Assembly: GCA_964636275.1 (NCBI GenBank)
Contig: CAZWRN010000003.1
Coordinates: 4,423 to 68,422, forward strand
DNA from: an uncultured Gammaproteobacteria bacterium
Lineage (GTDB): Bacteria > Patescibacteriota > Microgenomatia > Daviesbacterales > UBA10151
Direction of reading: 5' to 3'
DNA length: 64,000 bases
In this document: one piece after another, positions 40,080-58,906 of the stretch
Layout of the letters: every line of letters starts with the position of its first letter
Position numbering within the stretch: the first letter of the stretch is position 1
Program-made: the position numbers and the translations under genes
The notes under the pieces: model-generated
The model's input: the letters and a program-made list of their open reading frames with translations, nothing else
What the model was told of the DNA's origin: nothing
The model's database searches: none

Positions 40080-40089
40080 ATTTTGAAAA

Positions 40090-40116
40090 TTGTATAGAAC
40101 GACAGACTTTATACAA
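40090..40116. promoter_or_regulatory. inverted repeat TTGTATA-N13-TATACAA in the divergent MFP / atpB control region
   Basis: Perfect 7-bp arms at 40090-40096 and 40110-40116. Confidence 0.3.
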
Positions 40117-40240
40117 TATTTTGTACCACGTCAAGATAGAAGAGCCAGTATATATTATTATAGGTCCAAAGTCAATCTCAGTTGTCTTCATTTACGGATC
40201 TATTGCGCCTCAGACTCATTTTTACTACAATTACCGCGTT

Positions 40241-41155: not shown

Positions 41156-41190
41156 TAAATAAGCACGAAGCACTAATTTCGAAGCACGAA
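41137..41190 (+). repeat. direct repeats (A)AGCACGAAGCAC x3 spanning the atpB stop codon
   Basis: aaacacgaagcacactag / taagcacgaagcactaa / tcgaagcacgaaataa. Confidence 0.5.
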
Positions 41191-41299
41191 ATAAATTCGA
41201 AATCAAAAAAATTAAATTTAAAACTTTTAATTTTATATTTTGAATTTGTTTCGAATTTCGAGATTCGAATTTCGAATTTATAAAGAAAGGAGTTAATAA
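41160..41299 (+). repeat. intercistronic octamer-repeat element upstream of atpE
   Basis: ...TTTTGAATTTGTTTCGAATTTCGAGATTCGAATTTCGAATTTATAAAGAAAGGAG...ATG. Confidence 0.6.
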
Positions 41300-41500
41300 A
41301 TGGAACTTAATGCTTCATTTACTATTGCTATTGGTGGTATTGCACCAGCTTTGGCAATCGGTTTAATTGGTATGAAAGCTATGGACGCCATCGGACGCAA
41401 TCCTGATGCGCAGTCTAAAGTTCTGCCAGCGATGCTTTTGGGCATGGCTTTTGCAGAAGCTATTGCGATTTACGCTTTAGTTATCGCTTTCACCATGTAA
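41300..41500 (+). CDS. atpE: F0F1 ATP synthase subunit c
   Basis: 66-aa hairpin proteolipid with the conserved carboxylate in FAEAIAIYALV. Confidence 0.9.
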   Translation: MELNASFTIAIGGIAPALAIGLIGMKAMDAIGRNPDAQSKVLPAMLLGMAFAEAIAIYALVIAFTM

Positions 41501-41590
41501 TTCGCTACACAAAAATGGTCATTCTGGTGAGTAGTAGCGGCTCCAGATGTAAATCTGAAATCCAGGATGGCTTAGTTTCAAAAATTTAAC

Positions 41591-42079
41591 GTGGATAAAT
41601 TTATTAGTGATTTTGGGATTCAGCCCATTCTACTTCTAGCACAGATCGTCAATTTTGCGATCTTACTTTTCTTGCTCAAAAAGTTTCTTTATGGCCCAAT
41701 CATTAAAGTATTAGACAAAAGACGTGACACTATTGAGGAAAGTCTCAAAAACGCTGAAGAAATCGAACTAAAACTTGCAAAAACTGAGGAAGAATACCAA
41801 AAAAGAATTGATAAAGCATCTAAAGAATCTCGCGATATGATTGAAGAAACATCCAAAGCCACTCAGCACATGATGGCTGATGCCAAAGCTCAGGCAACTC
41901 TGGAAATGCAGGATATTTTAAAAAAGGGTCAAGAGTCTATTCAAATGGAAAGACAAAAAATGCAACAAGAGATGCGTTCTGAACTCACTCAATTAGTTAT
42001 CAATACACTCGAACAAGTCACTGGTAAAGTAGTATCGAAAAAAGATCAGATCGATATTATTGAAAAAGCAGTTAAATAA
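41591..42079 (+). CDS. atpF: F0F1 ATP synthase subunit b (GTG start)
   Basis: N-terminal TM segment followed by a long charged helix. Confidence 0.75.
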   Translation: MDKFISDFGIQPILLLAQIVNFAILLFLLKKFLYGPIIKVLDKRRDTIEESLKNAEEIELKLAKTEEEYQKRIDKASKESRDMIEETSKATQHMMADAKAQATLEMQDILKKGQESIQMERQKMQQEMRSELTQLVINTLEQVTGKVVSKKDQIDIIEKAVK

Positions 42080-42084
42080 GTGGC

Positions 42085-42161
42085 AAGTCGCCAGAGTCAA
42101 GTGACAAGGATTTTTTTAGTCACCCTAGACTCTTGACTCTAGTCACTTGAAACTAAATCTT
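42085..42161 (+). promoter_or_regulatory. structured intercistronic element: AGAGTCAAG(TGAC) can pair with either CTTGACTCT or GTCACTTGA, and the element ends CACTTGAAACTAAATCTT-ATG
   Basis: 9-bp complementarity 42093-42101 / 42132-42140, or alternatively 42097-42105 / 42142-42150. A near-identical element flanks the four-helix-bundle gene. Confidence 0.5.
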
Positions 42162-42554
42162 ATGAAAAAAAATAAAAAATTAGACAAAATCATCACTCAG
42201 GCCGTCCAGGCTTCTATCAAAAATGGAGCTATTGACCAGACCAAAGTAGCCCAATTTACAAAAAACTTTAAATCTTTCTCTCTCGAAGATGCTGTCTATA
42301 GTCTCAAAAAATACCAAAAAGGGCTGAAAAATTTTATCAGCCAACACACTATGACTATTTTTGCAGCTACTGAACTACCTAAAGAAACTTTAACCAAGAT
42401 TAAAAATTCATACAATTCTAATTCGAAATTAGAAGTTAGAAATTTGAAATTTCATTTAGACTCTTCCCTTTTGGCTGGGTTTAAGTTTAAAATTGGCGAT
42501 GAAGTATATGACAGCTCTCTAAGGAGATCTCTAGAAAAGCTAAAGATCCAATAG
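42162..42554 (+). CDS. atpH: F0F1 ATP synthase subunit delta (OSCP), short form
   Basis: Position between atpF and atpA, helical; 130 aa from the ATG at 42162. Confidence 0.55.
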   Translation: MKKNKKLDKIITQAVQASIKNGAIDQTKVAQFTKNFKSFSLEDAVYSLKKYQKGLKNFISQHTMTIFAATELPKETLTKIKNSYNSNSKLEVRNLKFHLDSSLLAGFKFKIGDEVYDSSLRRSLEKLKIQ

Positions 42555-42667
42555 CTGTCAAAATTCTGATAACTAATTTCTAAAATCTAAACAATTAAAA
42601 TTTTAAAAGTTTAGGTATTTGGATTTATTTAGAAATTAGAAATTCGGATTTAGAAATTTATAAATAT
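42555..42667 (+). repeat. intercistronic octamer-repeat element upstream of atpA
   Basis: ...TTTAGAAATTAGAAATTCGGATTTAGAAATTTATAAATAT-ATG. Confidence 0.6.
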
Positions 42668-44155
42668 ATGGCAAATATTATAGAAGATATTGAAAAAGAT
42701 ATTAAAAACCTGAAGCTAAAAGCTTCCAAGCAAAACGTGGGTACTGTCACTGAAGTTGGTGATGGTATCGCCCGTATTGAAGGACTTTCACAGGTCCAGG
42801 CTTCTGAATTACTAGACTTTGGCAAAGGAATTTTTGGTTTAGCCCTCAATTTAGAAGAATACAATGTTGGTGCTGTTATCTTTGGTGATTACACCCAGGT
42901 AAAAGAAGGTCAGCAAGTCACCACAACCGGAAGAATTTTGGAAGTTCCAGTTGGTGATGAGCTGATTGGCCGAGTTGTTGACCCGCTTGGTCAGCCTCTT
43001 GATGGCAAAGGTCCTATTAAAACCAAAAAAATGTATCCAGTTGAAAAAATTGCTCCTGGTGTGATTACCCGAAAATCAGTCACTGTACCTCTCCAAACTG
43101 GTATTAAAGCAATTGACGGCATGATTCCAGTCGGACGAGGCCAGCGAGAACTGATCATTGGGGATAGAAATACCGGTAAAACAACTATTGCTGTAGATAC
43201 TATCATCAATCAGAAAGATGTGATCTGTATTTATGTGGCAATTGGTCAAAAAGTCTCCAAAATTGCTCAAATCGTAGCTAAACTAGAAGAAACTGGTGCA
43301 ATGAAACATACCGTTGTAGTCCTAGCATCTGCTTCAGATCCAGCACCTTTGCAATTTTTGGCTCCTTACTCTGGTACTTCAATGGGCGAATACTTCATGG
43401 ATCAAGGCCAAGATGCTTTGATTATTTATGACGATTTATCCAAACACGCCAATGCCTACAGACAGATGTCTCTGCTTCTCAGACGCCCTTCCGGACGTGA
43501 AGCTTACCCAGGTGACGTTTTTTACCTGCACTCTCGACTTTTGGAAAGATCAGCTCGACTAAATGAAGATTATGGCGGTGGTTCACTCACAGCTTTGCCA
43601 GTGATTGAAACCCAAGCTGGTGATATTTCAGCTTATATCCCCACCAATGTGATCTCCATTACCGATGGTCAGATCTTTTTAGAGCCGGATCTCTTTTTTG
43701 CCGGCGTCAGACCAGCTATTAGTGTCGGTCTGTCAGTTTCTCGTGTCGGTGGATCAGCTCAAACCAAAGCGATGAAGTCTGTAGCTGGTAAATTAAAGCT
43801 GGAACTGGCTCAGTATCGTTCGTTGCAAGCTTTTGCTCAGTTTTCATCTGATCTTGATCCGCAAACCAGAGCTCAGCTCGAACGAGGAAAAAGAATGTCC
43901 GAGCTCCTCAAACAACCAGCTTATTCCCCTATGCCAATGGAAGAGCAAGTAGTTGTCTTCTGGGCTGCTACCAATGGCTATTTGGACAATATCCCAGTTG
44001 AAAAAGTTCGCGATTTTGAAGTCCGACTTCTCCAAGACATGAAAGCCAGATACAAAAAAGTCATTTCTGAGATTGCAGAAAAAAAGGTTCTGGATGAAAA
44101 ACTAACTAAGGAATTGGAGAAAATCCTTAAAGACTTCACCAAGTCCTTCAAATAA
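42668..44155 (+). CDS. atpA: F0F1 ATP synthase subunit alpha
   Basis: Walker A GDRNTGKT; 495 aa. Confidence 0.95.
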
Positions 44156-44159
44156 ACTC

Positions 44160-45062
44160 ATGCCTAATACCAGAGAACTCAGACGACGGATCAGATCTGT
44201 CAAAAATACCGCTCAGATCACCAAAGCGATGCAAATGGTCGCTGCTACCAAGATGCGCAAAGCCCAAAACCAAGCTATGGCCGGTCGACCTTACAATTTG
44301 ACACTTAATGAAGCCATGACTCTTCTATTACCCAAACTTAAAGACAACAACCATCCACTTCTCAAAGAGCAAACAAAAGGCAATTCAGCAGTGTTACTCC
44401 TTTCAACTGACAAAGCTCTTTGTGGTTCTTTGAATACCAATTTATTTAGAGCGACTCTCAATTTTATGAAAGATCAAAAAAATAATGTTTTTTACACTCT
44501 TGGTAAAAAAGGTCGACAGTTTTGCGTCAGGTCTGGCTATGATCTAGCTGCAGATTTTGAAAATTCGGACTTAGTCACCTTTAGAACAGCTTCACAAATT
44601 GCTAGACTCGTCACCAAGAGCTTTTTGTCCGGTGAAATAAAAGAGCTTTATATTGTCTACCCGGATTTTGTCTCAGCTCTCAGACAGGAGCCCAAAATCG
44701 TTCGTATTTTACCGGTCGATTTTCAAAACTTAGTTCAAACGCTTACTCCAGAGTTAGCTAACAAAAGTCGTCAGTCGTCAGTCGTCAGTCATCAGCAAAA
44801 CAACTCCGAGTTTCTGTTTGAACCCTCCATTGATGAACTACTGGATTTCATCTTAAACCACTTTGTTCAGGTCAAAATATTCCAGGCTATGATGGAAACC
44901 AAAGCCTCTGAACACTCAGCTAGGATGATCGCCATGCAAAATGCGACAGATAATGCAAAGGAGCTTGTATCTGACCTCACTCTTGCGTATAATCAGACAC
45001 GACAGGCTGCAATTACCAGTGAATTGTTAGAAATAACATCAGCCCAAGCAGCGTTAGAATAG
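44160..45062 (+). CDS. atpG: F0F1 ATP synthase subunit gamma
   Basis: N-terminal RIRSVKNTAQITKAMQMVAATKMRKAQ and a C-terminal helix. Confidence 0.9.
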   Translation: MPNTRELRRRIRSVKNTAQITKAMQMVAATKMRKAQNQAMAGRPYNLTLNEAMTLLLPKLKDNNHPLLKEQTKGNSAVLLLSTDKALCGSLNTNLFRATLNFMKDQKNNVFYTLGKKGRQFCVRSGYDLAADFENSDLVTFRTASQIARLVTKSFLSGEIKELYIVYPDFVSALRQEPKIVRILPVDFQNLVQTLTPELANKSRQSSVVSHQQNNSEFLFEPSIDELLDFILNHFVQVKIFQAMMETKASEHSARMIAMQNATDNAKELVSDLTLAYNQTRQAAITSELLEITSAQAALE

Positions 45063-45098
45063 AGTCAAGTCGCAAGGATCAAGAGTCAAGGATAAGGG

Positions 45099-46854
<1,756 letters not shown>

Positions 46855-46857
46855 CAT

Positions 46858-47523
46858 TTAATACAATTTTAAGAACAAACCTGCTGCGAATGCGATGGAT
46901 GTAAGAATTTGTAGAAATATCTTCTCTCTATTACTAATAAATCCAAAAAGATGAAAAGCACCCAAAATTACGTATAAACTTTGTGTAAAAAATAAATATA
47001 TATAAAAATTCAGCGATAGTGATTTAGCTAGGTTATCTAGTGACAAAATAAGCACAAAATTAACAAAGTATGTATGTAATATATCAATAAAGATTAATTT
47101 CAGTTTTCTTTTTAATTCATTTTTAGACCTTTCAACAAAATATTTATCACCAATTGTATATGCAAGCAGTAAGAGAGGAAAAGTTAAATATTTCAAATAA
47201 CTCCAAAATTCTGTGGTAAATGTTTCATAAGTAAATCTATATAAATTAAAAAGAAAAACTAATATGACTGTTCCAAACACACTGCTAAGAGACCTGCTAA
47301 TACCAGTTTCTTTTATATTGATAAAAAAAATAATCCAAAATGAAATAATAAAATATGTTATTTCCAAACTTAATAAAACTAGTAATAGAAATTGGATGAA
47401 TCTTAAAGGAGAACCACCGAAACCCTGAATTTGCAAAAATAACGCACAAACTACGGCTGTGAAACCAATTAAATCAATCAGTATTTTTTGACCATTATAA
47501 AAAGCAGTTATTTTTTGTTCCAT
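46858..47523 (-). CDS. polytopic membrane protein (about 6 TM), unknown function
   Basis: Hydrophobicity pattern only. Confidence 0.45.
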   Translation of the reverse strand: MEQKITAFYNGQKILIDLIGFTAVVCALFLQIQGFGGSPLRFIQFLLLVLLSLEITYFIISFWIIFFINIKETGISRSLSSVFGTVILVFLFNLYRFTYETFTTEFWSYLKYLTFPLLLLAYTIGDKYFVERSKNELKRKLKLIFIDILHTYFVNFVLILSLDNLAKSLSLNFYIYLFFTQSLYVILGAFHLFGFISNREKIFLQILTSIAFAAGLFLKLY

Positions 47524-47602
47524 AGAATATGATACGGAGTTTCTCCTTTTAGAAAGGGGAAATCAAGATGGACTATATACATTTGGTATATAAAATGGAT
47601 AA

Positions 47603-48358
47603 TTACACAACTTTTTGAAAAACACACCAGTGGTGCCGGCAGTTATACTTTTTTTCAAAGAAAGTGGCCATTTTGGCTACTCTTTCGTGTTCGATGAGCT
47701 TAACTCCACTATACATCTCCTCTATCTCATCCAGATCAAAAGTTTTTTCAAATTTACCTGTTTTAGGATGTAAAAAAGCCCCTTTTTCGGATGCAGGGGA
47801 CTCTTTGATAGTCTGAGCATGGTATTCGTCCTGTGGGGAGAGCAAATAAGCTAAAAGATATCCACCTGGTTTGAGGATTCTGACCATTTCTGTAGCGGCA
47901 AACTTTCTACCAGTGGCATCTTCAATGTCAGTCGTAGCAAAACAATCGATTACTAGATCAAATGAACTGTCAGGAAAATCCCATGGAGTAGTTGCATCAT
48001 GATAATAAAACTCGGTTTTATCTTTCAGTCCAACTCTTTCAGCCCGCTTTTTAGCCTCCTCTATCGCCGTTTTTGAAAAATCTATACCTGTTGAATAAAT
48101 CCCCTGCTTGGCTAGCCAAATAACATTTCTCCCTTTGCCACAGCCAATTTCAATGGCTTTTAAGTTTTTGTAATCATTTTTATTAGCTTTTAACCAGTCG
48201 AGAAATTTAATTATGCCACTCGATCCTTTTTCAGAATCCATTTGCAGTAAGGAGAATGGTTGTGAGTGCTCTTTTTCCCAAATATCCTGCTGGTCTTGAT
48301 GAGAGATATGCTTTGACATTGATCTAAAGATTTTGCGCTTTTGGGGCTGGATATTCAA
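47603..48358 (-). CDS. class I SAM-dependent methyltransferase
   Basis: Motif I IEIGCGKGRN and an acidic residue after beta-2 (GIDFS). Confidence 0.75.
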   Translation of the reverse strand: MNIQPQKRKIFRSMSKHISHQDQQDIWEKEHSQPFSLLQMDSEKGSSGIIKFLDWLKANKNDYKNLKAIEIGCGKGRNVIWLAKQGIYSTGIDFSKTAIEEAKKRAERVGLKDKTEFYYHDATTPWDFPDSSFDLVIDCFATTDIEDATGRKFAATEMVRILKPGGYLLAYLLSPQDEYHAQTIKESPASEKGAFLHPKTGKFEKTFDLDEIEEMYSGVKLIEHERVAKMATFFEKKYNCRHHWCVFQKVV

Positions 48359-48404
48359 GAGGGATGATATATATGTAGTATATACTACGTATAACTATAC
48401 AATT

Positions 48405-49322
48405 TTACTCTTCGCCGTGGAGTTCACTTGGGATAATGCTTAAAACGGCATGTAAAGTATTTAAAAATGTTAATGGATCTTCTTTATGACTTGTTGGCAA
48501 GCCCCAATTTTGAGCATTTTCAGCATGTTCACGCCCATCAAATCCTGGCCAACTTCGGACAAAAATACCTCTTCCAGCATCAAAACTAAGATCAGTAGAG
48601 GTATATTTTCGCACATATCTTTCAAAGACAGCTAAGTTAGTAGTTAAACGATAATTTTCTAAATCCCAAATAGCTGAATATGAAAATTCAGCTAGTTTGT
48701 CTGAACGATCTGATTCAATTGTTGGGGTAAAATTGGTACTCATGAAATCCGCAAATGACGCCCCACCTCTTTGAGTAGCAAAGTTATCCATTTGTTCACG
48801 AGTTTGTTGAGATCCCGAAAAATGAATCTCACGCGGAAAGTTTTGTGCTCCATAGCGAATATAAAGCCGATGACTTGCTGGAAAACCAGGTAGGAGAGCA
48901 TATTTGGCATCATACTGGTTCATTTCAATAAAAGTTTTTTTGATATCTTCAAATTTGAAACATTGAGTTAAAGTTGGATCATCCGGATCTACCAAATCAC
49001 CAGTCTCCCATTTTCTAACTAAATTCTTTCCTCGCAACCAATCAATTTTGTCTTTCCAAGATGGATTAGGTTCAGTATCATGAGCTTCTTTCCATAAATA
49101 AGCAGAACCAATAAGTATCTCTGTTGAAGGTTTAAAAACCTCTGCAACTGCTTCACCCATCAATCCTCGGTTTCCAGGAGCTGCCATACTTCGCCTTACT
49201 ACTTCTCGAATTTCCACTGGACTTGTGCCCTTTAAAATAGGCACTGCAAATTCATTGCTTCTTGGGATATCTGGAAAGTTCGACATATAGTGTATTATAC
49301 TACTATAAGTCTTTTTTTGCAA
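48405..49322 (-). CDS. hypothetical protein (305 aa), no recognised family
   Basis: Long ORF with consistent codon usage; no motif recognised. Confidence 0.5.
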   Translation of the reverse strand: MQKKTYSSIIHYMSNFPDIPRSNEFAVPILKGTSPVEIREVVRRSMAAPGNRGLMGEAVAEVFKPSTEILIGSAYLWKEAHDTEPNPSWKDKIDWLRGKNLVRKWETGDLVDPDDPTLTQCFKFEDIKKTFIEMNQYDAKYALLPGFPASHRLYIRYGAQNFPREIHFSGSQQTREQMDNFATQRGGASFADFMSTNFTPTIESDRSDKLAEFSYSAIWDLENYRLTTNLAVFERYVRKYTSTDLSFDAGRGIFVRSWPGFDGREHAENAQNWGLPTSHKEDPLTFLNTLHAVLSIIPSELHGEE

Positions 49323-49383
49323 AAAAGCTTGGCATTACAGGCTCACAATAAAACTAAAAATCAAATTTTTCATATCAAAAAAG

Positions 49384-51015
49384 TTAATGTTTTTTGAGAT
49401 ACGCTAGAGCATCTTCTGTAGATTTGAAAACCAGATGCTGTTTTTTAAGATCATTGTAGCCCTCACACTCTCTGGCTAGTACTTTAACTACCTGATTGTT
49501 GATACTTGAGATCAAAACTTTTTTCCCTTGTTCATGAACGATATCTATTATTTCATCCAAAGCATCAACTCCGTCAGTATCAATAAAATGTAGCTCTCTA
49601 AGGCGCAAAATGACGTTTTTATACCCATTTAGACCGGTGCTGAACCTTGCAACGTGTGCATGTCCATTGATATAAGCTAATGCTCCATTAAAAGAATAAA
49701 CCAGAGTATCATGCTCCGCGATAGCTGACAGCTCTGTTTCCTCTGTCAAGCGTTTGACGACACCTTTTTTATGATCGTTGATAGTCACTTCATATTGACC
49801 CTGAGATATTTTATTAACAAAAATCAGCAGTGATATAGTCGTACCTACTAAGATACCAATCAAAGGATCTGCATAAATAGTGATTGCAAAAACAATCAAA
49901 GCTAGCCCCAAACCCCATTTATCATGTCTAATCAAACTTTTTAATTCATGAACTTCAATCATCCTTACTGCCGCAAAAACTAAAATTGCCGCGATCACCG
50001 CCATCGGAATGTATTTGAAAAATCCAAGTAAAAAGACGCAGATCACAGCAATCGAAACAGAGCTGATGATAGCTGAGACATTGCTGGTAGCGCCTGATTT
50101 GGCATTGACCGAAGTTCTCGCCAAAGCCGCTGTGGCCGGAATCCCTCCCATCAGACCAGACGCAATATTAGCCAGACCCAAACCAAACATCTCTTTTCGA
50201 GGTTTGTGCTTGGTTTTGGTCATCCCATCGGCAATTTTGGCTGAGATCATCGTTTCTAATATAGCTACCACCGCCACTGTCACAGCAGCCGATAAAACAG
50301 AATAATCAATAAAAAATTTGGGAGCTGTAAACAATGTTAACTGCAAATCCCCATACCGTGAACCCAAAGTCTCCAAACTAAATGGCAGTAAATGCATAGT
50401 CGTCAGATATCCTAAAGCGATACCAAATGGAGTCAGTGTGATCGCTCCAGGCACTTTTTTCATATATTTGGCCAAAATAAACAACCCTGCTAAAAAGATC
50501 GCAAATACAGCCACTGAACTCAAAGAAGATTGCGACAGATGAAGAAGCGATTCTTTGACATTTTCCAAAAAATGTTCATGTTTTTCAAGACCTGACAGAC
50601 CAAAAATAAAATTTAGCTGATTGAATGCAATGATAAACGCTACACCCAGCGTAAACCCTTGAATGGTGGATCCTGGGACATAATTTAAAAACTTTTCCAA
50701 TCTCAAAAGATATGACACTAATATCAGCACACCGGAAACAATTGCCAAAGTTGGCAGAGTATCTGCACCGTGAATAATGGCAAAAGTGCCTAAAATACCG
50801 GAGAGTGCCCCAGTCGGACCAATAATATTGTAATTACTCCCTCCAAAGATAGCTGCCACCAAACCTGCCCAGACTGCAGTTATAATTCCCGCCAAAGGAG
50901 AAGTTTGAGAGGCAATTGCCAAGGATATCGATAAAGGGATCGACACCAAAGAGACAGTAATCCCCGACTTCCAGTTTTGTTTCAATCGAGCCAAAAACAA
51001 ATCAATTTTATCCAT
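49384..51015 (-). CDS. SulP-family anion (sulfate/bicarbonate) transporter with a C-terminal STAS domain
   Basis: SulP N-terminal signature (GITVSLVSIPLSISLAIAS) and STAS-like tail. Confidence 0.85.
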   Translation of the reverse strand: MDKIDLFLARLKQNWKSGITVSLVSIPLSISLAIASQTSPLAGIITAVWAGLVAAIFGGSNYNIIGPTGALSGILGTFAIIHGADTLPTLAIVSGVLILVSYLLRLEKFLNYVPGSTIQGFTLGVAFIIAFNQLNFIFGLSGLEKHEHFLENVKESLLHLSQSSLSSVAVFAIFLAGLFILAKYMKKVPGAITLTPFGIALGYLTTMHLLPFSLETLGSRYGDLQLTLFTAPKFFIDYSVLSAAVTVAVVAILETMISAKIADGMTKTKHKPRKEMFGLGLANIASGLMGGIPATAALARTSVNAKSGATSNVSAIISSVSIAVICVFLLGFFKYIPMAVIAAILVFAAVRMIEVHELKSLIRHDKWGLGLALIVFAITIYADPLIGILVGTTISLLIFVNKISQGQYEVTINDHKKGVVKRLTEETELSAIAEHDTLVYSFNGALAYINGHAHVARFSTGLNGYKNVILRLRELHFIDTDGVDALDEIIDIVHEQGKKVLISSINNQVVKVLARECEGYNDLKKQHLVFKSTEDALAYLKKH

Positions 51016-51247
51016 AATGTATTTAAATGATTTAAGTTAAGATTTAATCCGGTGATTACTCAGAGGGTTAAAAGACACTACAAAAAACAATCAGTTTTAC
51101 TTCCTGCAGATGTCCAAACACCTGCAATTTGCAATTTTAACAAGATAATTCTTACATTTCAATCTGGCTAAAATAGAGGTGACAAATAGTTTATCTGGTG
51201 ATACTATACGCAGAAGTTAATCAAAAAACTGGCGATTATTGATATTT

Positions 51248-53191
51248 ATGGAAAAACACACTATCATCGGCACAATTTTATTTTTCTGCCTTTTTTTTAC
51301 TCTGAGTTCACTATTTCAGCTTTTTAGTAATAAAACCAGTTTTCCATATACAGTAGCACTACTTCTTGGTGGACTATCCACTCAATTTTTTTTCAAAATT
51401 TTCGGTATTCATGCTGATTTTACTCTGGATCCAAATTTTATTTATTTCATCCTTCTGCCTTTATTGCTATTTGAAGCTGGAATGAAAATTGATATTCATC
51501 AGTTTAGATTGCAGTTTTGGACGATCACGTTTATGTCTACTTTTGGACTATTAATCTCGATGTTTGTAGTCGGACTGGGACTTTTTTACCTACTCGGATT
51601 TCCTTTGGAAGTAGCCTTGCTTTTCGGAGCTCTGATTTCGGCAACTGATCCAATAGCTGTATTGTCGATATTCAAAAGTCTGGGGGCTCCTAAAAGATTA
51701 TCTTTGGTAGCTGATGGTGAAAGTATGTTTAACGATGCAACAGCAGTGATTGCATTTAAGGTTGTGGCAGTTTTTGCTTTAGGGACAGTGGTTCATGCCT
51801 CTCAACACCCTTTATTTACTTTATGGCAGTTTAACTATGTCTTCTTTGGCAGTATTTTAGTAGGAGGGCTTTGCGGCTGGCTAGCATCGGAACTAATTAA
51901 ACGTATCAAAAATGATCCAGTCGTAGAATCTACGATTACACTGACTCTGGCTCTCGGTTCATTTATGTTAGGTGACCATCTGATTCATCTCTCAGGAGTA
52001 ATTACCTCAGTTTCTGCAGCCCTTATTTTTGGTCAGTTCAGTAAGACTCGCATCTCACGCGGTGTTAAACATTTTGTACATGAACTATGGAATTATATCT
52101 CTTATATCTCAGTCTCGTTGGTATTTTTCTTTGCAGCTTTTCAGCTAAATATTTCTCAAATTCTAAACCAGTTGCCATCACTTCCCTACGTTATTGGGTT
52201 GGTTTTACTAGGCCGAGCTATTTCTGTCTATGTTAGTTTTGCCATTACCAATCGGGCCAAAATTTTCAATTCTGAGCCGGATATCCCCCTCAGTTGGCAG
52301 CATATCTTAAATTGGGGTGGTTTACGTGGAGTAATTCCTTTGGTTTTAGCTTATACTCTACCTTTTGATTTTGCCTATCGAGAAGTCATTATCAGCTTCA
52401 CCCTAGCTTCATTTATATTTACTTTACTGATTAATGCGTTAACAATTCGCTGGCTTCTTGTTAAGCTAAGACTGCATTTACCCAAAAAAGAAGAAGAGAT
52501 CAATCAAACAGAAAAAAAACTCTATCAACTTGAACAAAAATTACTTACTTTATCTTATATTCCTGATAAAAAAATTAAACATTTAACTGAAGACAAATTG
52601 ATACAAGAAATTCAAGCTCAAAAGAAATATTTAGCTACTCAAACTGATCTAACACTGCTAAAACTTGCCTTCTCACTTCAAGCTCTGGATATCATTCGTA
52701 CCAAACTACAATTACTCTATGACGACGGGTTTATTAATGAAGGAGTTCTGATCGAATATGAAGCTCAACTTGATCTACAACAAGATAGCCTAGAATATCC
52801 TGATGTCTACTCAGGTCGAGGTTTTAACCAAGGCCGCTTACCAAATCGTAAATTATTTAGACAGCGAGTCATTTTCTGGCGACAACTAATTAAAAACTAT
52901 CCAATCTTTAAACTATTCTTTAAAAATACCGAAGATGAAGTAATAACTGAACGAATTATGATGCTTAAAGCTAAAGATATCTGTGCTCAAATAGTTTTAC
53001 GCTATCTAAATCGATTAAAAACCGTATTTAAGACCAGTAAACAGGTATTAGTGTTAATTAAGGAAATTGAATCAGACTACAGTCAAAGATCACAGGAATA
53101 CCAAACTGATTTAGCAGACTTAGCATCAAAATATGATTTACTCTTCAGTAAATACCAAAAAAACATCGCTTCTCAAATTGTTTATTCATAA
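51248..53191 (+). CDS. CPA1-family Na+(K+)/H+ antiporter (NhaP-type) with a long cytoplasmic C-terminal domain
   Basis: 10-12 TM segments and a SATDPIAVL-type motif. Confidence 0.8.
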   Translation: MEKHTIIGTILFFCLFFTLSSLFQLFSNKTSFPYTVALLLGGLSTQFFFKIFGIHADFTLDPNFIYFILLPLLLFEAGMKIDIHQFRLQFWTITFMSTFGLLISMFVVGLGLFYLLGFPLEVALLFGALISATDPIAVLSIFKSLGAPKRLSLVADGESMFNDATAVIAFKVVAVFALGTVVHASQHPLFTLWQFNYVFFGSILVGGLCGWLASELIKRIKNDPVVESTITLTLALGSFMLGDHLIHLSGVITSVSAALIFGQFSKTRISRGVKHFVHELWNYISYISVSLVFFFAAFQLNISQILNQLPSLPYVIGLVLLGRAISVYVSFAITNRAKIFNSEPDIPLSWQHILNWGGLRGVIPLVLAYTLPFDFAYREVIISFTLASFIFTLLINALTIRWLLVKLRLHLPKKEEEINQTEKKLYQLEQKLLTLSYIPDKKIKHLTEDKLIQEIQAQKKYLATQTDLTLLKLAFSLQALDIIRTKLQLLYDDGFINEGVLIEYEAQLDLQQDSLEYPDVYSGRGFNQGRLPNRKLFRQRVIFWRQLIKNYPIFKLFFKNTEDEVITERIMMLKAKDICAQIVLRYLNRLKTVFKTSKQVLVLIKEIESDYSQRSQEYQTDLADLASKYDLLFSKYQKNIASQIVYS

Positions 53192-53754
53192 TTGAGTTTA
53201 TTTTTTATAATCTCAACAATTTCCGGAAATTCCAGCTTATTGATCGGATAACCATAGTGTTGCTGATTGGTATCTTCAATATATTCACTTGCCAAATTCT
53301 TTTGAACAAATCTAGCCTCTTCAATTGGGATCAAAGGGTCATCAGTTGAATGAAACTGAACTATCCACTTTTGATTGGTACGAATCTTCTCCCATTGCCA
53401 CGGTGTATCATAGTAGCCACTTATTCTTTCACTCGCCATTCCAAGATCAGTATGACAGGCTGATACTAAAATCGTTCCCAATAATTGATGACTTTCAGCA
53501 TATCTCATGGCAGCCACAGCACCAGAAGAGTGACCAATCAATATTGTATCTTCATCAGCACCCAGCTTTTCCAAAAAAGGCAGCCAATACTCTTTTCTAG
53601 CAAAAACCGGATCAGGGAAATTTTGTGAGATTACCTGAATTCCAGCTTTTTCCAGCTCTTTTTTAACCCAAGGAAACCAACTATCTGGAGCATTAATATC
53701 CCCTCCCCCATTTCCAGGGATAAAAATTACTTTAACCAGATCACGATTTGTCAT
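53182..53754 (-). CDS. serine hydrolase of the RBBP9/YdeN alpha/beta-hydrolase family
   Basis: IPGNGGG ... GHSSGA nucleophile; 190 aa. Confidence 0.6.
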   Translation of the reverse strand: MTNRDLVKVIFIPGNGGGDINAPDSWFPWVKKELEKAGIQVISQNFPDPVFARKEYWLPFLEKLGADEDTILIGHSSGAVAAMRYAESHQLLGTILVSACHTDLGMASERISGYYDTPWQWEKIRTNQKWIVQFHSTDDPLIPIEEARFVQKNLASEYIEDTNQQHYGYPINKLEFPEIVEIIKNKLNYE

Positions 53755-53829
53755 TTATCGATTATACCAGCTTCAGTCTTTATACTACCCTCTTGTAAGC
53801 CGTTTAGCCTTTCATGTTACACTTTATAT

Positions 53830-54426
53830 GTGGATGAACTGCTCAGCACCCTCAAAGAAAAATCCATAATTCGCTCTTATATCATCTCAGAGTCACTGAT
53901 CTGGTCGGCTTGGAATGCAGTATTTCCTATTATGGCTATTTACATCACTTCCAAAGTGACTGGTGGAACTATTGAATCAGCAGGTATCGCTTACAGTATT
54001 CATTTAGTTTTTAGGGTCATTTTTGAGCTTTCGGTTGGAAAAATTTTACACAATGCTACAGACCGCAAAAAGTTTGCCATCTCAGTAATTGGTTTGACAC
54101 TAATGAGTATTGCTTACGCGGGTTTTGTTTTCTCCAAAAATATCTGGTTCGTTTTTGGTCTTTACGCTATGCTTGGAACAGGAATAGGTATCGCCAGCCC
54201 AGCCAAAAACAGTTTATTTGCTATGCATCTAGACAAGCATAAATCAGCCGGCCAATGGGCTTCCTACGATGCCATCACTTTTTTATGTACCGCCATCGCC
54301 TCAGCAGTCGGAGGAATGTTTGCCACCAAATTTGGCTTTGATGCCCTTTTTGCAGTAGTAGCTCTACTAAATTTTCTGGGGATTATTCCTTACATCTATA
54401 AAAAACACGTTTTGGAGTATATTTAA
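53830..54426 (+). CDS. 6-TM membrane protein resembling the C-terminal half of an MFS transporter (GTG start); possibly a gene fragment
   Basis: Six hydrophobic helices, an MFS-like inter-helix loop, weak start codon, and no N-terminal half nearby. Confidence 0.4.
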   Translation: MDELLSTLKEKSIIRSYIISESLIWSAWNAVFPIMAIYITSKVTGGTIESAGIAYSIHLVFRVIFELSVGKILHNATDRKKFAISVIGLTLMSIAYAGFVFSKNIWFVFGLYAMLGTGIGIASPAKNSLFAMHLDKHKSAGQWASYDAITFLCTAIASAVGGMFATKFGFDALFAVVALLNFLGIIPYIYKKHVLEYI

Positions 54427-54475
54427 ACGAAAAGCACAATTTGCTAAACAAAATACCTTATAGTATAATTAAATC

Positions 54476-55369
54476 GTGTCATCCCCTGATTTTAAAAAAA
54501 CACTTCCCATCTCTATTTCCACTGATATCAGAGGAGGCTTAGGTTCAGCTGAACAAAGACTGTTTCAAATTGCTGAAGCAGGATTTACTCATGTTTTATG
54601 GTGTCACTACTCTGGTCGGGAAGATTATAACTACAGTAAAACAGAAATCCAAGGAATTAAGCAAAATTTAAGAGATTCAGGTTTACAGTTACTAGATCTT
54701 CATGCCCCTCGTGGTTCTAATGATCAATGGACATCACTGGTAGAAGAAGAACGCCTAGCTGGAGTGAATACAGTAGCCAATCGAATGAGAATGACCGCTG
54801 AACTAGGTGGAGGGGTTGTCATGAATCACTGGTATCCACAGCCAATGGTTAACACTCCCGAACTGGCTACTGCTTATTGGGATGCTTCTAGAAGAACATT
54901 TGATGATTTAGAAAAAGTTAGTCGTGAAACAGGTGTAAAGTTAGCAACTGAAAATATGGATGATGAAATCGATACATTTCCCTATTTAAAAACCCTTTTC
55001 AACTTATATTCCCCAGAGTATTTAGGACTTTGCTATGATTCAGGGCATGGAAATATCCACGGAGACGGTATAGACCGTTTAGAAGAGGTTTCAGATCGAT
55101 TAATTTCTGTCCATTTAGGTGACAACTATGGTTTTCAGCGTGATTCAAGCCGTGGCGATCATCACACCTTACCATTTGACGGAACAGTCGATTGGGATAA
55201 ATTAACTACAGCTGTAGCTAACTCAGCCTACAAAGGACCAGCTAGTTTTGAACTCTTAATGCGGAAATATCCTGATATGGAAGTCGAAGCGTATCTTGCA
55301 GAAGCCTATAAAAGATCAATGATCCCCACACAGATGTTAGAAGATAAACGTCAATTATTAACTAAATAA
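54476..55369 (+). CDS. sugar-phosphate isomerase/epimerase (xylose-isomerase-like TIM barrel)
   Basis: TIM-barrel metal-binding pattern (E...D...H...E) with HLGDN. Confidence 0.65.
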   Translation: MSSPDFKKTLPISISTDIRGGLGSAEQRLFQIAEAGFTHVLWCHYSGREDYNYSKTEIQGIKQNLRDSGLQLLDLHAPRGSNDQWTSLVEEERLAGVNTVANRMRMTAELGGGVVMNHWYPQPMVNTPELATAYWDASRRTFDDLEKVSRETGVKLATENMDDEIDTFPYLKTLFNLYSPEYLGLCYDSGHGNIHGDGIDRLEEVSDRLISVHLGDNYGFQRDSSRGDHHTLPFDGTVDWDKLTTAVANSAYKGPASFELLMRKYPDMEVEAYLAEAYKRSMIPTQMLEDKRQLLTK

Positions 55370-56083
55370 AAAGTTAGCTTTGGCGTAATCTTCGTGAGTG
55401 TCTATTTCCACCCAATTTAAACCAGTTATATCTGCAGCTCCGAAAGGAATACCTTTTTCTACCAAAGTAGTGTAAGTATCGTCATAATATTCTTTCCAAT
55501 TGGCAGTATCTTGCATCAGTTTTTCTAGTTCATCAAAGAAGACTTTCCCACCCTCTGGACCTAGCTTTTCAATACCTATAGATTCACCAGATGCTTTATG
55601 TGGATCGAGTTTTTTACCAACTTCCAGTACCTGACCTTTATCATCAAGTGTCACTTTCACTTCTTCAGCTTCTAGATTGATATTGGTATCAATACAAAGA
55701 CAATTTTCAAATGGATTGGAAATCAATTTTTCTAAGACAGCTTTTTCAAACACTACATCACCGTCAAATTTGAGGAAAGTATCATTGCCAACAAAATCCC
55801 TGGCTAAAAGAACTGAATAACCAGTATTGGTGTCTAAATATTTATCGTTATGAATAAAAGTAGTTTTTAAACTAGGGAAATTTTCTTTAACAAAGTTTTG
55901 AATATCATCTGCTCTGTATCCTGTGATAAAAGCCACTTCTTCAATTCCTACAGCCTGAATATTCTCCAGCATTCTTTGTAGGATTGGTTTACCACCACCT
56001 ACTTTAAGGAGTGTTTTATGATTATTGTCAGTCAAAGGACGAATCCTTGAACCAATCCCAGCAACAAGTATTACAGCTTTCAT
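55358..56083 (-). CDS. LicC-family CTP:phospho-(alcohol/phosphonate) cytidylyltransferase
   Basis: MKAVILVAGIGSRIRPLT ... FIHNDKY ... VEIDTHEDY. Recalled resemblance to pneumococcal LicC, not computed. Confidence 0.7.
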   Translation of the reverse strand: MKAVILVAGIGSRIRPLTDNNHKTLLKVGGGKPILQRMLENIQAVGIEEVAFITGYRADDIQNFVKENFPSLKTTFIHNDKYLDTNTGYSVLLARDFVGNDTFLKFDGDVVFEKAVLEKLISNPFENCLCIDTNINLEAEEVKVTLDDKGQVLEVGKKLDPHKASGESIGIEKLGPEGGKVFFDELEKLMQDTANWKEYYDDTYTTLVEKGIPFGAADITGLNWVEIDTHEDYAKANFLFS

Positions 56084-56132
56084 AATTCGAAATATTATAC
56101 TTCCAAATGGCCAAAGCTACAAGATTATATTC

Positions 56133-56933
56133 TTATTTACGCATTGGAAGTAGCAATCTATCCGACTGTGTATGGGTCTGGTAACCTCTTTCGGCAAGCC
56201 TAAATAGCCCAACAATGATATTTATGACAGTAAAAAGTAACAAGGCTATATCCAGTCTGTTAAAAATAGCAGCAATTGCTGTCAGAAAAATAAACTCTCC
56301 TTCATCAAGTAAAAAGATAATCCGATTTTTAAGCCACAAACTTTTCAACCATCCACCAGCTGTTTTCCGTAGATCAGCATGCATTTTTTGATACTTTTCA
56401 TACAAATCAAGTCTTATAGCTTTACTTTTTTTCAAATAATCAGGATCATCAGCAAACCCAGAATAAACTGTTTCTAGCTTGATGTAATATCTGAACATAA
56501 AAAAGAAACAAGATGTAAATCCAGCAATTATCCACAAAACATTGCCTGTTTGAAAATAAACTGCCAAACTAAGCGCTAAATTTATCTGATAAATTTTTAA
56601 TACATCAAGAGTTTTATCTAAATAATTACCAATTAAAGAAGATAACTTTTTAGTTCTAGCTAACTGACCATCCATACAATCTAATATATAAGATGCTGGA
56701 AATAGAAAAGCTGCAACATATAAATGATATGGCAAATCAGCAACCAAAAGGACACAAGCAATGACATGAAATCCATAAGATACCAAAGTTAGTAAATTTG
56801 GAGTTATAAAATTGAAAGGAGTAACTACTGGGATCAAACTATTGGCTAGTTTAGGCATAAATTGATCAACCCAATTGCTAAAATAATGTGGTTCTATAAT
56901 AAAAGGTGCTTGAGTAGTTTTTTTGGTATCCAT
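56133..56933 (-). CDS. CDP-alcohol phosphatidyltransferase-family membrane enzyme
   Basis: D-G-x2-AR...G-x3-D-x3-D signature in ILDCMDGQLARTKK...GNYLDKTLD; polytopic. Confidence 0.75.
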   Translation of the reverse strand: MDTKKTTQAPFIIEPHYFSNWVDQFMPKLANSLIPVVTPFNFITPNLLTLVSYGFHVIACVLLVADLPYHLYVAAFLFPASYILDCMDGQLARTKKLSSLIGNYLDKTLDVLKIYQINLALSLAVYFQTGNVLWIIAGFTSCFFFMFRYYIKLETVYSGFADDPDYLKKSKAIRLDLYEKYQKMHADLRKTAGGWLKSLWLKNRIIFLLDEGEFIFLTAIAAIFNRLDIALLLFTVINIIVGLFRLAERGYQTHTQSDRLLLPMRK

Positions 56934-56938
56934 AAGGA

Positions 56939-58129
56939 TTAATTATACAATGAGGAGTTATCTTTAAACCGTGAAGGATGTTTTGACAGATTATTAACCA
57001 TCTGATTAACTGGAGTTCTATATTGATTGATAACTGTTTCAAAAGCAACTTTAAATTCCTGAATTTGATCAAAAGTAATTTCTCCAATACTGGCTATCTG
57101 GAAAACTTTATCTTTTAACGGACCTTTTCCTTCATATATCACAAATCCAAGCGATTTAAGCGCATTTTTTAAATCAGAAGCCAGCAAATAATCAGGTAAG
57201 CTAAATGTTGTTAACATAGAAGACATCAGATACTTTGAATCAAGCAATGGATGTATATCCATTTGCTTTAAAGTTTTTCTGATTAAAAGAGCTTTCTTTC
57301 TTAAATCAGCTCTTAAATTTTCAACTTTGTTTATTAAAATATTATTTAGTGCCTGTTCCAGAGCACCAAACAACTGAACTGCCGGAGTATTTGGAGTTTG
57401 TTTTAAATCTTTAGCGTAACGATAAAATTTATATAAATTAAGATATGCTGTTCTTGGTGGAATATCTTTGATAGATTCAAAAGATTTATTTTTTCCAATC
57501 ACAATTGATAAACCGGGAATTGAACCTAAAGCTTTTGAAGAAGAAGTAGTTAAAAAATCAATATTCGAATCTTCAATTTCAATTTTGTCAACACCAGCGC
57601 TACTTACAGCATCAACATGAAACATAAGGCCAAATTCTTTAACTATTTTTCCGACTTTAAAAATCGGATTTAACATTCCTGTTGATGTTTCATGATGAAC
57701 CATAGAAATCATCTCAATATTATTCTCTTTAACAAATTTTCGGATCTGAGAAAGATTAAAAGGTGTTCCCCATTCAAGTTTAATTTGAAAAGTATTTGGG
57801 TTATGAATTCTCGAAATATCTCCCAACCTTTGACCAAATTCCCCATTAGAGATGATTAATATCTTCTTTTGTCCGACCACAGAAGAAAGTACTGCCTCAT
57901 TTGAAGCACTACCAGAACCGGTAATGATAACCGACTGATATTTACTTTGCTCTCTAATTTCAAAAACATCTAACAATTTACTATTGACACTTTTGAAGAG
58001 GACTGAAAACTCTTTCTCTCTGTGACCAATCTCCAAAGTAGCAACAACCTGTCGAACATTTTCAGCCACGTTTACAGGCCCTGGGCAAAAAAGTTTATGT
58101 GATGATTTTAAATACATTGTTGTTTTCAT
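56939..58129 (-). CDS. class V aminotransferase most similar to 2-aminoethylphosphonate:pyruvate transaminase (PhnW)
   Basis: PGP..., ITGSGSASNEAV, MVHHETSTGMLNPI, TTSSSKALGSIPGL, FVIYEGKG. Resemblance to PhnW is recalled by eye, not computed. Confidence 0.6.
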   Translation of the reverse strand: MKTTMYLKSSHKLFCPGPVNVAENVRQVVATLEIGHREKEFSVLFKSVNSKLLDVFEIREQSKYQSVIITGSGSASNEAVLSSVVGQKKILIISNGEFGQRLGDISRIHNPNTFQIKLEWGTPFNLSQIRKFVKENNIEMISMVHHETSTGMLNPIFKVGKIVKEFGLMFHVDAVSSAGVDKIEIEDSNIDFLTTSSSKALGSIPGLSIVIGKNKSFESIKDIPPRTAYLNLYKFYRYAKDLKQTPNTPAVQLFGALEQALNNILINKVENLRADLRKKALLIRKTLKQMDIHPLLDSKYLMSSMLTTFSLPDYLLASDLKNALKSLGFVIYEGKGPLKDKVFQIASIGEITFDQIQEFKVAFETVINQYRTPVNQMVNNLSKHPSRFKDNSSLYN

Positions 58130-58468
58130 AGTCTTATAGTTATTTACTTCAGGATACTACAAGTTAGAATTGTACACCCTTTGTAAGCTTTTGTCTAGTC
58201 TATGTCTGGTTTATGTCTAAAAAATAGTTTGTAAAAAAACTTCAGCTTATTCTCAGCTAATATCTTTATTATCAAAATGGTCAAACTATTAAATCCTAAA
58301 ACAAATAACCTCGAAGAGTCAGCTTGTACTTCCTCACTTTTTTTGGGGAGCCGCTAGTTGGCTTTCTTTTTGACTGTAAAAATATTATACACCTCTTATG
58401 CAAGTCCCTGCTTTAGCCTCAAAAGATAAAGATTGAATTGCAACTCCAAATTTATTACACTACACTCC

Positions 58469-58906
58469 ATGGCTGAACTAATTCCGTCAGGAAGCAAGGT
58501 TTCCTTACATTTAAAAATTGTTACACCAGAGTCTCAAGTTCGGGATGAAATGGTTGATCAAGTCAACGTTGCGACCACTCAAGGAGAGATTGGTATTCTT
58601 CCCCATCATGCTGATTTGATCTCAAAAATTGTTCCGGGAGAACTCAAAATCAAAAAAGGCTCTAAAGTCGAATATTTTGCCACAGGTGACGGTTTTTTGC
58701 AGGTGACAAATAATGTTTTGACAATCATGACTGATCTAGCTGAATCCGCTGCCTCTATTGACGAGCGGGCTGTTGAACAGGCGAAAAAACGCGCCGAAGA
58801 AGCTTTGGAACAAAAACTTGGCGATGAAGAATACGCTGAAACACTGGCTATTTTGGAAAAATCTCTAGCTCAGCTCAAAGTTAAGCGACGCCACCGCAAT
58901 ATTTAG
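58469..58906 (+). CDS. atpC: F0F1 ATP synthase subunit epsilon, about 11.6 kb from the rest of the atp operon
   Basis: TTQGEIGILPHHADLI ... DERAVEQAKKRAEEAL ... AQLKV; start trimmed to MAELIPS. Confidence 0.85.
   Translation: MAELIPSGSKVSLHLKIVTPESQVRDEMVDQVNVATTQGEIGILPHHADLISKIVPGELKIKKGSKVEYFATGDGFLQVTNNVLTIMTDLAESAASIDERAVEQAKKRAEEALEQKLGDEEYAETLAILEKSLAQLKVKRRHRNI

Follow-up and report, generated by a model that had tools for sequence, protein, structure and literature searches.

A mobile three-gene operon of a Microgenomates bacterium with a putative role in amino-phosphate head-group synthesis

What is the product of a bacterial operon that sets a relative of 2-aminoethylphosphonate (AEP) transaminase beside two enzymes of the kind that activate and transfer lipid head groups? 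This question is raised by three adjacent genes in a 64-kb stretch of contig CAZWRN010000003.1, referred to here as the window, whose positions are used as coordinates throughout. The trio consists of an aminotransferase-fold gene, a CDP-alcohol phosphotransferase gene and a nucleotidyltransferase (NTase) gene. A first-pass annotation of the window had read these genes as a cassette for the salvage of a host-derived phosphonate, beginning with a PhnW-type AEP transaminase and ending in a phosphonolipid or phosphonoglycan. Our analysis of the three proteins, their relatives and their gene neighborhoods indicates that the trio probably makes an amino-phosphate head group and attaches it to a membrane molecule, and it gives little support to a phosphonate as that head group.

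A conserved operon in many lineages

The three genes are co-oriented on the minus strand, with exactly the limits first reported for them, and are transcribed in the order aminotransferase, CDP-alcohol phosphotransferase, NTase, with intergenic gaps of 5 nt and then 49 nt (Table 1). All three proteins score above the Pfam gathering cutoffs (Aminotran_5, E 3.7e-22; CDP-OH_P_transf, E 7.4e-15; NTP_transferase, E 8e-14). The earlier family assignments are therefore sound at the superfamily level; the finer ones are less so, since the aminotransferase misses the NCBIfam cutoffs for PhnW and the affinity of the NTase to LicC is visible only in a search of the PDB.

Relatives of the aminotransferase are numerous. 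At 47-57% identity they fill over 120 database clusters, and a pattern scan of species-representative genomes located one in at least 238 species; in 80 of 80 fetched loci the aminotransferase is 46-52% identical to the window protein. Carriers among the Gammaproteobacteria include Shewanella benthica, Aliivibrio, Thioglobus, Marithrix and Methylobacter, and also Beggiatoa. Further carriers are Alphaproteobacteria, Bacteroidota, Actinomycetota, SAR202 and SAR324 (Chloroflexota are also listed), Nitrospinota, Chlamydiota, Legionellales and several Patescibacteria, and two trio-carrying metagenome-assembled genomes are labeled archaeal. The idea that the trio is an adaptation of a reduced-genome symbiont does not agree with its presence in free-living Shewanella, Aliivibrio, Beggiatoa, SAR202, SAR324, Bacteroidota, Actinomycetota and others.

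Of the non-redundant loci, 49 extend 3.6 kb or more downstream, and 44 of these have the three genes on one strand in the order seen in the window, an arrangement far beyond chance. Three of the five exceptions combine a CDP-alcohol phosphotransferase of another subtype with an NTase. All-against-all clustering of 1,959 flanking open reading frames (ORFs) revealed no further conserved neighbor gene. A Sulfitobacter plasmid carries the trio standing alone, and trio-type genes are found on two plasmids in all. When annotated plasmids were searched by tblastn the result was bimodal: two trio-type genes matched at 43-47% identity, while every annotated phnW/AEPT gene matched at 32% or less. The trio is a self-contained, horizontally mobile unit.

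In some lineages additional genes are inserted within the operon. These encode P-loop kinases (uridine-kinase/PRK-like or other), ATP-grasp ligases or a PssA-like second transferase, and the nearest distinct relative of the window has a metallo-beta-lactamase-type (MBL) hydrolase. The PssA-like CDP-alcohol phosphatidyltransferase was observed at five loci (L053, L041, L071, L017 and L059), scoring 78-91 bits, below cutoff, against the models for PssA and archaetidylserine synthase; at L017 and L059 it substitutes for the usual transferase, and an ATP-grasp ligase follows it.

The three enzymes and their relation to phosphonate genes

The first gene encodes a pyridoxal 5'-phosphate (PLP) enzyme whose best NCBIfam model is PhnW-AepZ (E 3e-77). 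Its score of 260.3 bits lies well below the TIGR03301 cutoff of 360.8, and the other models for AEP:pyruvate transaminases (AEPTs) are missed by wider margins (TIGR02326, 183.1 against 400.8; NF010006, 189.8 against 296). A second member of the clade, from Halopseudomonas aestusnigri (L085), is likewise below TIGR03301 (289 against 360.8). Identity within the trio clade ranges from 38 to 100% (median 59%), as opposed to 24-35% between the clade and true AEPTs. In a neighbor-joining tree computed on a subset of the sequences and rooted with 2DR1, the trio clade was monophyletic in 95 of 100 bootstraps and the AEPT/PhnW clade in 81 of 100, and the two are sister groups.

Residues were compared in an alignment that reproduces the PhnW numbering of S. 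Typhimurium (D168, K194, T243, R340). The PLP-binding residues are retained: K199 (the PLP lysine), D173 (the PLP-N1 aspartate) and T248 are invariant in 85 of 85 trio-type and 7 of 7 AEPT sequences. The position of Arg340 is different. It is Gln in all 85 clade members (Q344 in the window protein) and Arg in all seven AEPT/PhnW sequences and in 2DR1, and this exchange within the F-R-I-x-x-x-G motif separates the trio-type enzymes from the AEPT/PhnW family. The clade is also distinguished by an invariant Glu97 beside the PLP-stacking aromatic residue and by Asn20, Asn77, Asn247 and Asn263 (T15N, V70N, F242N and E258N in PhnW numbering). Other features are common to both groups; the HRE, YLNL and QTPxTP motifs are found in the PLP enzyme and in biosynthetic AepZ enzymes. 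Arg340 of PhnW (1M32), like Arg360 of AGT (1H0C), presumably holds the substrates by their phosphonate or carboxylate group. Substrate recognition has thus probably changed in the trio clade, since a cationic anchor has been lost and an acidic residue and several amides gained. Judged by its sequence the first protein of the trio is no AEP TRANSAMINASE, which the first-pass annotation had taken it to resemble, but an offshoot that is sister to AEPT/PhnW. The label '2-aminoethylphosphonate-pyruvate transaminase' is nevertheless attached by JGI/IMG to trio-type enzymes (P0006, P0008, P0013, P0121 and others) despite the absence of Arg340 and of a phosphonate gene context.

The gene neighborhoods point in the same direction. 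The first-pass annotation had noted that the window harbors neither PEP phosphomutase (Ppm) nor phosphonopyruvate decarboxylase (Ppd), and this was borne out: the 64 kb contain no EDKx5NS motif and gave no phmmer match to a genuine Ppm domain or to Ppd. The phmmer queries were Ppm and Ppd from Mycetohabitans, supplemented by two PhnX sequences. With the Ppm motif and the same queries, Ppm, Ppd and PhnX were found near none of 85 trio-type loci (the window, 82 further loci and two plasmids; flanks of about 10 kb, about 1.1 Mb of sequence), and the matches of a Ppm-NTase fusion at these loci concern its NTase domain only. Six of seven control loci, whose PhnW/AEPT genes encode proteins that share no more than 32% identity with the window protein, are linked, three to Ppm and Ppd and three to PhnX (Fisher p ~1e-8). 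PhnW itself shares the fold and the equivalents of K194, D168 and T243 with the trio enzyme at 27-29% identity, but its gene always adjoins phnX in the controls that carry it and, besides Arg340, it has the motifs TWD and KWRFTS, neither of which occurs in the trio clade.

Two matches within the window were rejected. A thiamine diphosphate (ThDP) motif, the sole match of that scan, lies in a plus-strand ORF of 608 aa (21421-23247) that is Gly-rich and has no Pfam family; the match is spurious and the protein is not Ppd. The Ppm-NTase fusion also gave a weak phmmer match to 8455-9201 on the minus strand, which is merely another NTase, a second and unrelated NTP_transferase/IspD-like protein of 248 aa.

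The third gene of the trio encodes an NTase whose best PDB match is LicC (1JYK; 59 bits in an alignment of the N-terminal 108 residues), together with the PntC domain of 6PD1 (57 bits); no NCBIfam model was reached at its cutoff. The N-terminal GxGxR...K signature is present. R13, K23 and K157, which correspond to Arg15, Lys25 and Lys153 of the Treponema denticola enzyme (Tde-PntC), are invariant in 65 of 65 aligned NTases, and so are the acidic residues D107, D109, E167 and E226; the Tde1415 reference sequence in this alignment was rebuilt from a printed alignment. The nucleotide used is probably CTP. The amine of the substrate is contacted by Glu104 and Glu196 in Tde-PntC and by Asp105 and Asp192 in LicC (PMC6697681). 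In the window NTase, Asp107 takes the place of Glu104 and Thr205 that of Glu196; position 205 is Glu in 53 of the 65 proteins and Thr in the window and nine relatives, which form a Patescibacteria-type subclade. The conservation of acidic residues of the LicC/PntC amine pocket in most of the family suggests that the substrate carries a primary amine and would be the product of the PLP enzyme.

In the CDP-alcohol phosphotransferase the family motif D(x)2DG(x)2AR(x)8G(x)3D(x)3D is complete (DCMDGQLARTKKLSSLIGNYLDKTLD, from residue 85), and the match to PF01066 scores 56.1 bits against a gathering cutoff of 22. The protein is polytopic, with hydrophobic stretches at about residues 33-80, 119-151 and 204-250. 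Its closest solved relatives are AF2299 and IPCT/DIPPS, followed by human CHPT1/CEPT1. Because AF2299, DIPPS and CHPT1/CEPT1 use soluble CDP-alcohol donors, the AF2299/DIPPS-like enzyme of the trio would be expected to do so as well.

Trio-type aminotransferases also occur in other settings. Bacillus thuringiensis plasmid pYGD36 (NZ_CP019232.1, ~10.9-29.5 kb; L089/L091) encodes a trio-type NTase-aminotransferase fusion of the Gln type in a cluster with a second NTase, two non-ribosomal peptide synthetase (NRPS) genes, an MFS transporter, a 5'-nucleotidase, a methyltransferase, a phosphopantetheinyl transferase (PPTase) and a NUDIX hydrolase. Neither ppm nor ppd was found anywhere on pYGD36, and this apparently undescribed cluster suggests a nucleotide-activated amine that feeds a non-ribosomal peptide. 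In Halopseudomonas aestusnigri (L085, 8506-13620) the trio-type aminotransferase stands without the two transferases and is flanked by a LysR gene, a glutamine-synthetase-like (gamma-glutamyl-amine synthetase-like) gene and a solute-binding protein gene, a catabolic-looking context that may point to the free amine substrate of the enzyme. A third type of aminotransferase, 35-38% identical to the window protein, with an NGAFGER motif and neither an FRI nor an FQI motif, is found on IMG/VR viral contigs (L098-L104); no CDP-alcohol phosphotransferase, NTase or ppm was found near it.

A putative head-group pathway and its alternatives

The trio may be a Kennedy-type (CDP-alcohol) head-group cassette that is independent of carbon-phosphorus (C-P) bond synthesis. 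We hold this reading as a whole tentatively and rate it at slightly less than an even chance. In the first step the PLP enzyme would turn a phosphorylated carbonyl compound into a small primary-amine phosphate; the compound should be a common metabolite, because the operon moves alone between phyla and onto plasmids. In the second step the NTase, whose catalytic residues are intact, is predicted from its family to join the amine-phosphate with CTP to give a CDP-linked head group, CDP-X. Fusions of an NTase with an aminotransferase, Tde1415 (6PD1) and the trio-type fusion of B. thuringiensis, are a precedent for the pairing of the first two enzymes. In the third step the transferase, with its intact motif, would likewise be expected to move phospho-X to a hydroxyl acceptor in the membrane, most simply diacylglycerol or another lipid, so that an amino-phospholipid would result. 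The sequence of events proposed in the first-pass annotation, from an amine-phosphate or -phosphonate through CMP/CDP activation to CDP-alcohol transfer, is reasonable and has homologues in the Mycetohabitans cluster (L090) discussed below; its phosphonate substrate is the part that we would not retain. The general scheme with a non-phosphonate head group comes close to an even chance.

The same logic, in which a head-group phosphate and CTP yield a CDP-head group that is passed to an acceptor, underlies the LicC/CDP-choline route of S. pneumoniae (1JYK) and the eukaryotic Kennedy pathway (CHPT1/CEPT1). In those routes the head-group phosphate is supplied by a kinase acting on an imported alcohol, whereas the conserved first gene of the trio encodes a PLP enzyme. 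Moreover, the partner of LicC is LicD and not a CDP-alcohol phosphotransferase, and the similarities to the trio proteins are low (59 bits; 22-24 bits).

A candidate for the first step is the conversion of dihydroxyacetone phosphate (DHAP) to serinol phosphate, with the CH2OH group held by a neutral Gln/Asn pocket. Serinol phosphate as X is our best guess, but on balance an unlikely one. It was chosen because the Gln/Asn pocket could accommodate CH2OH in place of the carboxylate or phosphonate bound by relatives, because DHAP is universally available, and because the free OH of serinol phosphate suits a PssA-like partner. A kinase and a PssA-like transferase are ill matched to AEP, which needs no phosphorylation and has no OH, and the inserted accessory genes fit a phosphate-ester amino-alcohol better than AEP.

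Several points weigh against a Kennedy-type cassette free of C-P chemistry. The search for linked genes covered the flanks of each locus, and ppm and ppd may be present at unlinked sites. The role of Arg340 is taken from the structures of PhnW and AGT, and we found no paper that states it. Binding of the carboxylate of an amino-acid donor is hard to explain without the canonical Arg, and the PLP enzyme may therefore not be a classical transaminase. At the amine-contact position the window NTase itself has Thr205 in place of Glu. The accessory kinases could instead serve CMP/CTP recycling. The head group X and the carbonyl compound from which it would be made are conjectural, and so are the amino donor and the acceptor. 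Finally, each protein of the trio has its homologue among the AEPT, PntC and CDP-alcohol phosphotransferase of genuine phosphonolipid clusters, which makes phosphonate chemistry the nearest documented precedent.

The best surviving alternative, although an unlikely one, is accordingly a phosphonate head group: AEP or a related phosphonate, made by unlinked ppm and ppd or taken up, would be converted to CMP-AEP and incorporated into a phosphonolipid or phosphonoglycan. The PhnW-AepZ model and the shared HRE, YLNL and QTPxTP motifs agree with it, and so does the sea, which is rich in AEP, as the home of many trio carriers. The most complete precedent is the 'CDP-OH' group 1 cluster of the Burkholderiales, a predicted phosphonolipid cluster (Li & Horsman 2022, PMC8942020), exemplified by the Mycetohabitans rhizoxinica megaplasmid. 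It has homologues of all three genes: an AEPT (136 bits to the window aminotransferase), PntC (60 bits) and a CDP-alcohol phosphatidyltransferase (18 bits; median of 34 bits for the marine subtype). The presumed logic, from amine through CMP-activation to transfer, is also the same. The Burkholderiales cluster, however, always has Ppm (or a Ppm-NTase fusion), Ppd and a 2-oxoglutarate-dependent (2OG) oxygenase adjoining, as none of the 85 trio-type loci has; its AEPT carries Arg340 where the trio enzyme has Gln; and its product is itself only predicted. A second precedent is Tde1415 of Treponema denticola, a PntC-AEPT fusion (6PD1/6PD2; Rice et al. 2019, PMC6697681) that combines a LicC-like cytidylyltransferase with a class-V aminotransferase, as the trio does, and is matched by both window proteins (NTase, 57 bits; PLP enzyme, 128 bits). 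Its gene, unlike the trio, lies beside ppm and ppd; the fusion acts on AEP, and its aminotransferase domain is 27.6% identical to the window protein, with Arg at the position of Gln344. A Borg element provides a third case, in which a Ppm fusion is encoded about 11 genes away from a CDP-alcohol phosphotransferase and an NT-AEPT-like fusion.

What counts against a phosphonate in the trio is, besides the contrast in linkage between trio-type and control loci, that the PLP enzyme misses the AEPT equivalog cutoffs, that its clade is sister to AEPT and not nested within it, and that Arg340 is replaced throughout while the new Glu97 has appeared in the active-site region. The kinase and PssA-like accessories also misfit AEP. 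Phosphonate salvage, as first proposed for this locus, meets a particular difficulty: imported AEP is already an amine, which leaves no role for the transaminase, although no gene of the operon is better conserved. In addition, about 95% of genomes are reported to be without ppm (PMC8942020), and in these a lone trio arriving on a plasmid would be useless.

It is quite improbable, in our estimate, that the PLP enzyme acts as a decarboxylase, converting phosphoserine to phosphoethanolamine or CDP-serine to CDP-ethanolamine in a bacterial CDP-ethanolamine route to phosphatidylethanolamine (PE) or to phosphoethanolamine decoration. Loss of the carboxylate-anchoring Arg in 85 of 85 sequences would be expected if the alpha-carboxylate must leave, and a universal precursor would explain an operon that stands alone. 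Phosphoethanolamine is weakly accepted by LicC-type NTases (PMC6697681). The transferase, moreover, matches human CEPT1/CHPT1. A search of the literature gave no support for this scheme, and many hosts, such as Shewanella and Aliivibrio, already make PE through Pss and Psd. Among members of the AGXT/AEPT subgroup, no decarboxylase is known to us. The trio-type enzyme of Halopseudomonas, in its amine-catabolic-looking cluster, fits a transaminase.

A soluble phosphodiester as the product is just as doubtful. Here CDP-X would be transferred to a second soluble phospho-alcohol, as by IPCT/DIPPS, to give a compatible solute resembling di-myo-inositol-phosphate or a unit of a cell-surface polymer. 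IPCT/DIPPS and AF2299 do join an NTase to a CDP-alcohol phosphotransferase acting on a soluble CDP-alcohol. They are the top NCBIfam and PDB relatives of the window transferase, the best NCBIfam matches use phosphorylated-alcohol acceptors, and many carriers of the trio are marine. The two trio proteins align to the corresponding halves of NF041135 (IPCT/DIPPS), the NTase over its full length to the IPCT half (78 bits) and the transferase to the DIPPS half (35 bits), but these scores are far below the cutoff of 580. IPCT/DIPPS includes no PLP enzyme, the trio enzymes are unfused, and their NTase family largely keeps the acidic residues of the LicC/PntC amine pocket. The operon has no conserved phosphatase, and a half-size protein of the major facilitator superfamily (MFS) with a weak resemblance to the LtaA flippase accompanies the trio in the subclade of the window.

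An inositol or aminocyclitol head group, suggested by the IolE-like TIM barrel encoded next to the trio and by the IPCT/DIPPS affinity, was rejected, as only one subclade has the TIM barrel and neither a myo-inositol-phosphate synthase (MIPS) nor a dehydrogenase is linked.

Genomic setting and significance

The AtpD protein of the window is 83-84% identical to Candidatus Daviesbacteria proteins, and the host is thus a bacterium of the Microgenomates within the Candidate Phyla Radiation (CPR). Its F-type ATP synthase operon is split. The genes atpB-F-H-A-G-D lie at 40052-46854 and atpC lies apart at 58433-58906 on the plus strand; between them is an AT-rich 11.5-kb block (46858-58129) of transporters, a methyltransferase, two unknown genes and, at its end, the trio. 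The same layout is seen in relatives whose aminotransferases are 90% and 56% identical to that of the window. Earlier described as the next gene upstream of the trio, atpC is adjacent to it but divergent, and so not upstream in the same direction; it now stands at the head of a run of three family 2 glycosyltransferase (GT2) genes. The trio is AT-rich (GC 32-35%), with a GC content at third codon positions (GC3) of about 22%, compared with 34-39% for the atp genes, a difference in keeping with mobility as a unit.

Two small ORFs were noted in this region. An ORF of 120 aa between atpG and atpD (45099-45461, plus strand) belongs to the 23S_rRNA_IVP / bAvd four-helix-bundle family, according to the Pfam assignment of the identical gene in L108, and is an odd insertion within the atp operon. 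Directly after atpD, at the edge of the block, is an ORF of 221 aa on the minus strand (46858-47523) with no Pfam family, a GC content of 25.8% and a GC3 of 18.9%.

Table 1. Position of the trio and of the features that flank it in the 64-kb window.
Feature	Position	Strand	Length	Family or remark
PLP enzyme of class-V fold, AepZ-like, distinct clade	56939-58129	minus	396 aa	Aminotran_5
CDP-alcohol phosphotransferase, integral-membrane	56133-56933	minus	266 aa	CDP-OH_P_transf
NTase of LicC/PntC/IPCT type	55358-56083	minus	241 aa	NTP_transferase
Divergent intergenic region, trio/atpC	58130-58432			Candidate promoter only
Xylose-isomerase-like TIM barrel	54476-55369	plus		AP_endonuc_2, E 6.5e-26
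Half-size MFS protein	53830-54426	plus	198 aa	MFS_1, ~4-6 hydrophobic stretches

The best sigma-70-like match in the divergent intergenic region is TAGACA-17-TACAAT (58197 to 58169, minus strand), about 40 nt upstream of the start of the first gene. It is a candidate promoter, and the count of promoter-like sites in the region is not above that of shuffled sequences. On the other side of the trio, the TIM-barrel gene runs convergently to that of the NTase and overlaps it by 12 nt, and its product shows weak NCBIfam similarity to IolE, CbiR and epimerases. It adjoins the trio only in the window and in L106/L107, L009 and L077. The half-MFS gene recurs in L106, L001, L004 and L057; the similarity of its product to the LtaA flippase amounts to 32 bits, far below cutoff, and it is possibly an accessory exporter or flippase of the window's subclade. 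Both genes had been suggested as members of the same module as the trio. They do recur in the window's own subclade, and only there, and would be lineage-specific accessories at most.

A literature search found no description of the trio operon, none of the three proteins reaches an NCBIfam equivalog, and the names given to them by PGAP are only generic. Looked up as exact sequences, neither the window aminotransferase nor P0123 gave a match. The trio could represent an undescribed Ppm-independent pathway, present in hundreds of bacterial and possibly some archaeal species, which produces a head group new to membrane lipids, for example of a 'phosphatidylserinol' type derived from DHAP, and in which the first enzyme is a neofunctionalised offshoot of AEP transaminases that databases systematically mislabel as PhnW. 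So specific a proposal is speculative and, taken as a whole, unlikely. The labeling of the first enzyme has consequences of its own. Surveys of marine phosphonate cycling use phnW databases built from such annotation (PMC9381506), and those that depend on IMG-type labels may count a gene family without a demonstrated phosphonate link. The Arg to Gln switch provides a simple sequence rule for separating trio-type enzymes from PhnW.

The function of the trio is directly testable, because so small and self-contained an operon occurs in Shewanella, Aliivibrio and Sulfitobacter, which can be cultivated. If the proposed Kennedy-type pathway is correct, it would be a new and widely distributed branch of bacterial polar-lipid or cell-surface chemistry, one that could underlie some of the 'unidentified aminophospholipids' of marine and CPR-associated bacteria. 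Lipids of CPR bacteria are believed to come from their hosts, and a head-group cassette in such an organism would give a hint of how scavenged lipid backbones may be remodeled.

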